From: Escherichia phage vB_EcoM_PTE-Eco15
DNA: 64,000 nt
Sequence record: PQ352352.2
Reading direction: 5' to 3' (one strand)
In this document: positions 31,355 to 32,584 of the stretch, piece after piece
Numbering within the stretch: the stretch's first letter is position 1
Layout: the number at the start of each line of letters is the position of its first letter
The notes under the pieces: generated by a model
Databases searched by the model: none
Told to the model about the DNA's origin: nothing
The model's input: only the letters and a program-made list of their open reading frames with translations
Program-made: the position numbers and the translations under genes

Positions 31355-31405
31355 TATAATTTGACTCACGGACGAGTCACCAACTATTAACTAAGTGGAA
31401 AATTT

Positions 31406-32584
31406 ATGAGCACAGTTTTTAATACAAATCCAGTTGATGTTTTAAAAGAACCTATGTTTTTTGGTTCAGGTCTTGGTATTGCACGTTATGATATTCAACG
31501 GCATCGAGTATTTGAAGAACTTACTGAGAAGTCCTTATCATTTTTCTGGCGTCCTGAAGAAGTAAACTTAATGATGGATGCTGCACAATTTAATAAGCTT
31601 CCTCAGTATCAGCAAAATATTTTTACTAATAACCTGAAGTATCAATCACTTTTGGATAGCATTCAGGGTCGTGCGCCATCTGCTGTACTTATGTCATTAA
31701 TTTCAGACCCAAGCCTTGATACATGGGTTGCTACGTGGACTTTTAGTGAAACTATTCACAGCCGTTCATATACACATATCATGCGAAATCTTTATACTGA
31801 TCCGTCAAAGGTATTTGATGAGATTGTACTAGATGAAGCTATTATGAAACGTGCTGAATCCATTGGGCGTTATTATGATGATGTTCTGATTAAAACTCGT
31901 TATTGGGAAAACGCTAAAGCTGATATCGAATACCAAAAAGAAATTAATGCAGACGAAGATGATATTAAAGATGCCATAGAGCATGAAATGTATTGGAAAC
32001 GTGAACTAATGCGCTCTCTTTACCTCTGCCTACACGTAATCAACGCATTGGAAGCTATTCGTTTTTATGTATCTTTCGCATGTACCTTTAACTTCCACAA
32101 GAATATGGAAATCATGGAAGGTAATGCCAAGATTATGAAGTTCATTGCACGTGATGAGCAGCTTCACCTTAAAGGCACTCAATATATTATTCGTCAACTT
32201 CAACTTGGCACTGATGGCGATGAATGGGTTAAAATTGCTCAAGAGTGTGAACAAGAAGCAGTTGATATTTTCATGGAAGTTAACCGCCAAGAAAAAGATT
32301 GGGCAGTTCATTTATTTAAAGATGGTGATGTTCCTGGATTAAATACAAATAGCATGTGGAGCTTTATTGATTACTTAACTGTATCTCGTATGAAACAGTG
32401 CGGTCTTCCATGCCCAATTACCGATGCTCCGGTTAAACATCCATATCCTTGGATTCGTGAATATCTTAATTCTGATAATGTTCAATCCGCGCCACAAGAA
32501 GTAGAACTGTCATCTTACCTTGTAGCGCAGATTGATAATGATGTTGATGATAAAGTTATGATGAGTTTTAAAAAATACTTTTAA
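31406..32584 (+). CDS. nrdB: ribonucleotide reductase small subunit NrdB (uninterrupted)
   Basis: 392 aa continuous ORF with the conserved diiron-ligand region; no intron present. Confidence 0.95.
   Translation: MSTVFNTNPVDVLKEPMFFGSGLGIARYDIQRHRVFEELTEKSLSFFWRPEEVNLMMDAAQFNKLPQYQQNIFTNNLKYQSLLDSIQGRAPSAVLMSLISDPSLDTWVATWTFSETIHSRSYTHIMRNLYTDPSKVFDEIVLDEAIMKRAESIGRYYDDVLIKTRYWENAKADIEYQKEINADEDDIKDAIEHEMYWKRELMRSLYLCLHVINALEAIRFYVSFACTFNFHKNMEIMEGNAKIMKFIARDEQLHLKGTQYIIRQLQLGTDGDEWVKIAQECEQEAVDIFMEVNRQEKDWAVHLFKDGDVPGLNTNSMWSFIDYLTVSRMKQCGLPCPITDAPVKHPYPWIREYLNSDNVQSAPQEVELSSYLVAQIDNDVDDKVMMSFKKYF

Follow-up and report, generated by a model that had tools for sequence, protein, structure and literature searches.

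The 64,000-nt stretch of Escherichia phage vB_EcoM_PTE-Eco15 (PQ352352.2) analysed here, referred to below as the window, contains the genes nrdA and nrdB for the large and small subunits of the aerobic ribonucleotide reductase (RNR). The window comes from a T4-like genome (Tequatrovirus). Its best 25-kb match in the phage collection is 98.0%, with no identical record, and the best match of the nrdA–nrdB region in that collection is 96.5% identical. The open reading frames (ORFs) on the plus strand follow the T4 order: td exon 1, I-TevI, td exon 2, nrdA.2, nrdA.1, nrdA-a, an HNH gene, nrdA-b, nrdB, denA and rnlA. The large subunit is thus encoded in two pieces, nrdA-a (28186–29619; 477 aa, N-terminal part) and nrdA-b (30365–31354; 329 aa, C-terminal part), with the HNH gene, mobE (29665–30375; 236 aa), lying between them. 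A spacer of 51 nt (31355–31405), an unoccupied intergenic site, separates nrdA-b from nrdB (31406–32584), which starts with ATG and encodes a 392-aa protein matching Pfam Ribonuc_red_sm (E 2.9e-36). These and all other features located below are on the plus strand. In our reading, which we hold with high confidence, the locus combines an uninvaded, T2-like nrdB and nrdA–nrdB gap with a separate MobE cassette of the type described in Aeromonas phage Aeh1, and it is this cassette that splits nrdA.

nrdB and the gap upstream of it

The annotated T4 record has nrdA, mobE (141 aa) and nrdB.1, followed by a two-exon nrdB whose 598-nt intron contains a defective I-TevIII, in agreement with the original prediction, which gave T4 a mobE gene in the gap and an I-TevIII intron in nrdB. 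It had also noted that nrdB in the window is intron-free. The ORF list indeed gives a single ORF of 392 codons, and the product is colinear from end to end with the spliced T4 NrdB (388 aa). The four additional codons fall in a variable patch (31886–32065) that accounts for the sole length difference between the two genes; this patch (codons ~161–220) is only 48–62% identical to T4, with insertions and deletions. Outside it and the patch around the T4 MobE target described below, nrdB is 92–100% identical to T4. T4 exon 1 ends in ...GCGT and exon 2 starts with GTACC..., and the intron position maps to 32081/32082 in the window, where the sequence runs on uninterrupted. Hence no insert of ~0.6–1.1 kb with an HNH ORF follows the ...GC(G/A)T sequence, as it does where nrdB carries the group I intron with I-TevIII.

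The spacer between nrdA-b and nrdB is equally bare, and it is exactly as short as predicted. The ORF list has no ORF in 31355–31405, and in the same interval we found no terminator-like site and no remnant of mobE or nrdB.1, while a small hairpin there is no more stable than shuffled sequences (z −1.4). The gap therefore has none of the parts of a T4-type free-standing mobE locus, namely an HNH ORF with nrdB.1 and an internal terminator. Phages that lack mobE are reported to have no terminator in the nrdA–nrdB spacer (PMC2790892), and the spacer of the window, having no terminator-like site, fits that reported state. The claim that the only HNH gene in the neighbourhood sits inside nrdA holds for the entire window: tblastn over all 64 kb with T4 MobE, the window HNH protein and full-length I-TevIII returned no Mob-type HNH gene other than that at 29665–30375. 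The matches of T4 MobE are confined to 29665–30051, and full-length I-TevIII has no match in the window.

We then compared the two places in nrdB at which the T4 elements act. MobE-dependent nicks of T4 were mapped to codon 42 of T2 nrdB by Wilson and Edgell (PMC2790892), who reported AAG at this position for T2 and every phage that lacks mobE, and AAG, AAA, CGG or CGA for mobE carriers. Over codons 36–56, the comparison gives AAG (Lys) at codon 42 of the window (31529–31531) and CGG in T4, and the surrounding segment (31466–31585) is 80–82% identical to T4, one of only two divergent patches in nrdB. The unoccupied intron insertion site with its I-TevIII homing-site region, −31 to +16 around 32081/32082 (32051–32097), matches the fused T4 exons at all but two of its 47 positions: at −5 (32077) the window has C where T4 has T, and at −2 (32080) it has A where T4 has G. 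The cleavage positions, as given in PMC1865063, are unchanged. Because codon 42 is AAG and the I-TevIII cleavage positions are intact, both sites look naive and are probably cleavable by T4 MobE and I-TevIII. The suggestion to map the T4 intron site in the intronless gene and see whether it is a cleavable homing site is thus borne out as to a vacant and nearly unchanged site, and its cleavability is a projection from sequence.

The single colinear ORF, the vacant intron site and AAG at codon 42 identify the gene as an intron-less, T2-type nrdB allele. The T2-type region described by Wilson and Edgell in 2009 (PMC2790892) likewise has a gene-free and terminator-free gap, an uninterrupted nrdB, and AAG at codon 42 beside a conserved FFWRPEE block; the likeness is to that description and to many public T-even genomes, not to an aligned T2 sequence. 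Compared with T2 as described there, the MobE cassette inside nrdA is present only in the window.

This empty state is common. Of 969 phage records matched by a 181-nt probe that runs from the last part of nrdA-b through the spacer into the beginning of nrdB, 623 match it contiguously; for a 180-nt probe across the nrdB intron site, the match is contiguous in 979 of 1433 records. These and the following record counts are lower bounds. The 181-nt probe is 100% identical in vB_Eco_ZCEC15, a phage without the full nrdA cassette. Only 20 records, most of them from T4 isolates and close RB phages, contain T4 mobE and nrdB.1 in full, and the T4 nrdB intron is present in 118–191 records. Most T-even phages therefore have, as their default, an uninvaded nrdB behind an empty nrdA–nrdB gap, and T4 departs from it.

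The MobE cassette that splits nrdA

Homology to T4 nrdA ends at 29534, after the codons for NDVNS, and restarts near 30452, so that an insert of ~0.9 kb replaces 9 nt of the T4-type gene (codons PDA). The whole mobile cassette (29535–30451) consists of a coding tail on nrdA-a (the a-tail), a 45-nt spacer, mobE and a coding tail on nrdA-b (the b-tail); to its right, a tract of recoded exon sequence runs to ~30490. In an alignment with E. coli NrdA, NrdA-a stops near residue 455 and NrdA-b restarts at ~452–456, before Cys462. The break falls after Cys439 and Glu441 (E. coli numbering) and separates the active-site cysteines 439 and 462, in the same loop as in Aeh1 (PMC3045599). The last 11 nt of mobE are shared with nrdA-b, whose frame differs from that of nrdA-a. 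The NrdA-b residues that precede GLC (IENKGEV) align with the E. coli loop NDENGEI, and they are probably donor exon sequence brought along by co-conversion.

Both halves of the split protein carry a foreign extension at the break. The final 28 residues of NrdA-a (29535–29616, QQTRLIKIKKSDVAKFYEANPGGIIQSK) form a basic tail with an isoelectric point (pI) of 10.0, and NrdA-b starts with an acidic tail (MNIDYEFVDEFYEDDEYTTIEV...; pI 4.05 for the first 29 aa). The corresponding tails of Aeh1 have pI values of 10.4 and 3.8, and the Aeh1 reductase requires them for activity and for assembly of the holoenzyme (PMC3045599). The tails of the two phages are partly conserved, with LIKIKKSDVAKF in the window vs LFKVKKSEVDKF in Aeh1 for the a-tail and YEDDEYTTIEV vs YEDEEYTTVEI for the b-tail, and they differ at their outer ends. 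None of 2000 shuffles reached the alignment scores of the window and Aeh1 tails. The conserved residues are specified by different codons in the two phages at 12 of 19 and 9 of 19 positions, and since about half of them use other codons, the comparison points to selection acting on the tail peptides. A fused-tail search of a 5.8-billion-protein collection, aimed at an undivided NrdA with the two tails joined in a single loop as a possible ancestor, returned only two short fragments.

The original prediction proposed aligning the HNH protein with the MobE proteins of T4 and Aeh1, and the outcome places it in the MobE family. It is 45% identical to Aeh1 MobE over 227 of its 236 residues (E 2e-57), and with T4 MobE it shares 45% identity in the N-terminal 130 aa only (E 1e-31). 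The similarity to T4 MobE ends after the HNH domain, and the C-terminal half resembles the Aeh1 type only. In Pfam, the protein matches PF22083 (I-HmuI NUMOD-like; E 1.6e-9), and its HNH match (E 0.0028) is below the cut-off. By these comparisons, the product of 29665–30375 is an Aeh1-type MobE, a putative homing endonuclease with an N-terminal HNH domain and a NUMOD-like domain, and the C-terminal half is presumed to be the DNA-binding part. The gene is intact in all nine loci examined, and the ratio of nonsynonymous to synonymous polymorphism (pN/pS) between its two alleles is 0.24. T4 MobE is tied to the aerobic RNR operon as well; however, it has 141 aa and no NUMOD-like C-terminal domain, and it is an intergenic gene product that nicks codon 42 of nrdB and splits no gene, whereas mobE of the window splits nrdA.

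The start of mobE lies in a predicted RNA hairpin of 13 bp (29639–29674), with the Shine-Dalgarno sequence (AAGAGGAAAA) in the loop and the AUG (29665–29667) in the 3′ arm. The predicted stability is −13.8 kcal/mol (z −4.2), which none of 200 shuffles equalled, and a hairpin predicted at the same place in Aeh1 has −20.9 kcal/mol (z −5.2). The Aeh1 hairpin has been reported to sequester the mobE ribosome-binding site (PMC2988022). Its sequence is different and it occludes the Shine-Dalgarno sequence, whereas the hairpin in the window would bury the AUG instead. The hairpin sequence is invariant among the coliphage copies of the cassette and offers no variation from which covariation could be read. 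On the predicted fold, a hairpin over the start codon probably holds down the translation of MobE in the window.

The likeness to Aeh1 extends to the details of the layout. The insertion point and the order nrdA-a, mobE, nrdA-b are the same in both phages; the spacer before mobE is 46 nt in Aeh1 and 45 nt in the window, the overlap between mobE and nrdA-b is 14 and 11 nt, and MobE has 237 and 236 aa. Both have a basic a-tail, an acidic b-tail and a predicted hairpin over the mobE translation start. A split between Cys439 and Cys462, a full-length MobE gene that overlaps nrdA-b, and a basic tail paired with an acidic one are traits of an Aeh1-type cassette, and all are found here. Aeh1 differs in being a Cinqassovirus rather than a Tequatrovirus, and the nrd operon of the window is at the T4 position. 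A further parallel is T4 mobA in the gene 60–39 topoisomerase, where a Mob-family HNH gene likewise lies inside an essential gene, with C- and N-terminal extensions on halves that reassemble (bioRxiv 10.1101/2022.08.31.505936). There the target gene is a different one, and the translational bypass element of that system is absent from the window cassette.

We propose that an Aeh1-type cassette was inserted into nrdA between the codons for Cys439 and Cys462, bringing with it the HNH gene and the two coding extensions. By analogy with Aeh1, in which NrdA consists of two distinct polypeptides with their tails still attached (PMC3045599), NrdA-a and NrdA-b would be translated separately, and the halves would assemble via the tails into a working (NrdA-a/NrdA-b)2–NrdB2 reductase. 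Several points weigh against this account or parts of it. The functional claims rest on the Aeh1 experiments, and the proteins are only ~45–60% identical. The Shine-Dalgarno sequence before nrdA-b is weak (GAAG, ~6 nt upstream). The recognition rules of T4 MobE and I-TevIII are too poorly known for cleavage to be predicted from sequence. Finally, the record counts that describe the empty state include RefSeq/GenBank duplicates, and part of the records in which a probe is not contiguous reflect divergence, not insertions.

Spread of the cassette and alternative histories

We found the full cassette in 34 phage records, and the exact layout of the window recurs in one aligned piece in relatives including fPS-90, HY01, SH-2 and ZQ3. 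Eight phages that bear the cassette were aligned. The nrdA flanks of the window are 68–83% identical to those of the Mosigvirus phages AV111 and ZQ3. From ~29486, identity between the window and these Mosigvirus phages rises to 97–100% and remains at that level across the a-tail, spacer, HNH domain and b-tail, except in a mosaic patch (30015–30230) in the C-terminal, NUMOD-like part of MobE. Two alleles of this patch occur, with 71–82% DNA identity and 23 amino-acid differences. One allele is found in the window, fPS-90, F26, 236Ecol005PP and Manna and the other in HY01, SH-2, AV111 and ZQ3, so that the allele groups cut across genera. To the right of the cassette (30454–30490), the codons for GLCTLSAFVL are recoded to an extent that differs among the phages. 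The Ser codon right of the insert is AGC in the window and 236Ecol005PP, whereas T4 and the remaining copies use TCT; the string CTTAGCGC of the window is similar to TTTAGCGGC of Aeh1. This tract looks like the product of variable co-conversion or of changes that protect the target site. The jump in identity between the cassette and its flanks across genera indicates that the cassette was acquired as a unit by lateral homing into nrdA, not by a local relocation.

In an IMG/VR scan with the MobE alignment, Aeh1 itself is the only one of 80 kept loci with a Mob-type HNH gene between nrdA halves, and many other loci have such a gene between nrdA and nrdB. The annotation of the split nrdA is inconsistent across databases: the HY01 RefSeq record (NC_027349) has the homing endonuclease and nrdB annotated and no coding sequence for either nrdA half, and GenBank records of sister phages have two 'alpha subunit' genes.

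The original prediction suggested that the HNH gene inside nrdA may be the same mobile endonuclease as the one in the T4 gap, relocated into its presumed target gene. Such a move within this lineage, with the gap left empty, has some points in its favour: both enzymes are of the MobE family and 45% identical over their N-terminal 130 aa, a transposition-like origin has been proposed for the arrangement in Aeh1 (PMC3045599, PMC2988022), and in none of the phages that we examined does the nrdA cassette occur together with a T4-type mobE in the gap. We nevertheless consider it very improbable, and have rejected it. The C-terminal halves of T4 MobE and window MobE are unrelated, and only Aeh1 MobE aligns over the full length. 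The cassette, far more similar between genera than the nrdA around it, was imported ready-made, and the gap has the same sequence in a phage without the full cassette and holds no trace of mobE or nrdB.1. At codon 42, the window has the allele that mobE-less phages are reported to have, not the T4-type one found beside a resident mobE (PMC2790892). Because T4 MobE targets nrdB at codon 42 and not nrdA (PMC2790892), the idea that nrdA was the presumed target of the gap endonuclease fails. What survives of the suggestion is the family membership, together with the derivation of the Aeh1 form from a move of mobE that the literature proposes; the enzyme here is of the Aeh1 type and came in laterally with its tails. 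A past loss, in which the lineage once had the nrdB intron, the gap mobE or both and shed them, either through an exact deletion or by recombining with an empty allele, is extremely improbable in our judgement, even though homing elements cycle through gain, decay and loss, I-TevIII of T4 is itself already defective, and close relatives that bear the cassette have either the nrdB intron with a full-length I-TevIII (fPS-2, vB_EcoM_112 and AV111) or other genes in the gap. The junctions in the window are clean and match the widespread empty alleles, codon 42 with its neighbourhood is of the kind described for mobE-less phages, and the sequence would look alike whether the elements were lost or had never been there.

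We also considered whether the interruption of nrdA could be a group I intron or an intein. Group I introns of T-even phages occur in td, nrdB and nrdD, and the window has one in td; the part of the insert outside the HNH gene (~210–225 nt) is about as long as the smallest group I cores; active-site codons of RNR are common intein sites; and the IMG/VR contigs L033–L038 have a gap of ~1.1 kb in their nrdA match at codon 438. The evidence from the insert itself makes either kind of element scarcely credible. Intron_gpI of Rfam has no match in 29480–30520 even at E-values up to 10, whereas an equal-sized scan of td as control gave Intron_gpI with 42.5 bits (E 3e-9). This control was detected only in the short-region scan, where it fails to reach the gathering score of 50. 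A scan of 9 kb did not detect td either and was disregarded as a negative test in favour of the narrow scans. The non-coding part of the insert is 45 nt only, and the tails are conserved with Aeh1 as peptides, with many synonymous codon changes. At the left junction, the shared exon sequence ends in C, whereas a group I 5′ splice site should be preceded by U. The frame of nrdA-b differs from that of nrdA-a, with stop codons between them, and Pfam finds only RNR domains and no intein domain in either half. The halves of Aeh1, moreover, stay separate polypeptides that retain the tails (PMC3045599). Neither a group I core nor the Hint domains of an intein were thus detected in the insert, which also lacks the in-frame position of an intein, and the Aeh1-type cassette remains the reading that we prefer.

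Neighbouring elements were seen in several of these comparisons. The td gene of the window (26331–27340) bears a group I intron with an intact I-TevI (26459–27196, 245 aa), which has Pfam GIY-YIG, zinc finger and DNA-binding domains. In the IMG/VR contigs L033–L038, L028 and L030, the tblastn match of NrdA breaks at ~codon 438, at an active-site cysteine, and restarts ~1.1 kb on in the same frame, which suggests an intein there; the same contigs also have a Mob-like HNH gene between nrdA and nrdB. In relatives with the cassette, the nrdA–nrdB gap is a hot spot with alternative cargo. The gap of phage 236Ecol005PP encodes a D12-class adenine methyltransferase (locus L006, 3513–4304), and those of F26 (L005, 3510–5078) and Manna (L091, 3386–4978) encode a protein of 522–530 aa that has a weak, sub-threshold match to REase_MTES_1575 and is labelled 'endonuclease' in the F26 annotation.

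Significance of the coliphage cassettes

The 'genes-in-pieces' reductase of Aeh1 was presented in 2007 (Friedrich et al.) and 2011 (Crona et al.) as the outcome of a single event of its kind, similar to a transposition, with tails that had no database matches at the time (PMC3045599). A preprint of 2022 mentions other Myoviridae with similar insertions and conserved extensions, citing unpublished data (bioRxiv 10.1101/2022.08.31.505936). Our searches of the open-access literature, on nrdA-a/nrdA-b plus related terms, found no detailed description of coliphage copies. The intron-free nrdB, the empty gap and the cassette are all already present in annotated public genomes, and their biology has been described. 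What we add is modest: the homology of the tails to those of Aeh1, the jump in identity across genera and the two MobE alleles. Given the 2022 preprint, the coliphage cassettes are confirmation and detail rather than discovery. The intron-free nrdB and the empty gap carry little weight on their own, as they are the T-even default.

The chances seem to us about even that the Aeh1-type MobE cassette, instead of being a single accident of transposition, is actively homing, that it carries its complementary tails as a protein-level repair kit and that it is now spreading between coliphage genera. If so, the combination of this cassette with the td intron and naive sites for T4 MobE and I-TevIII would make the phage a natural recipient in which to test competition between nrd elements and trans-homing. 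The split-nrdA solution, which has been studied only in Aeh1, is present with its tails in E. coli phages of two genera, which bear a clear mark of recent lateral spread. Coliphages are far easier to manipulate than Aeh1, and they would permit tests of what the tails do to restore a broken-up active site and of whether the cassette homes as a unit.

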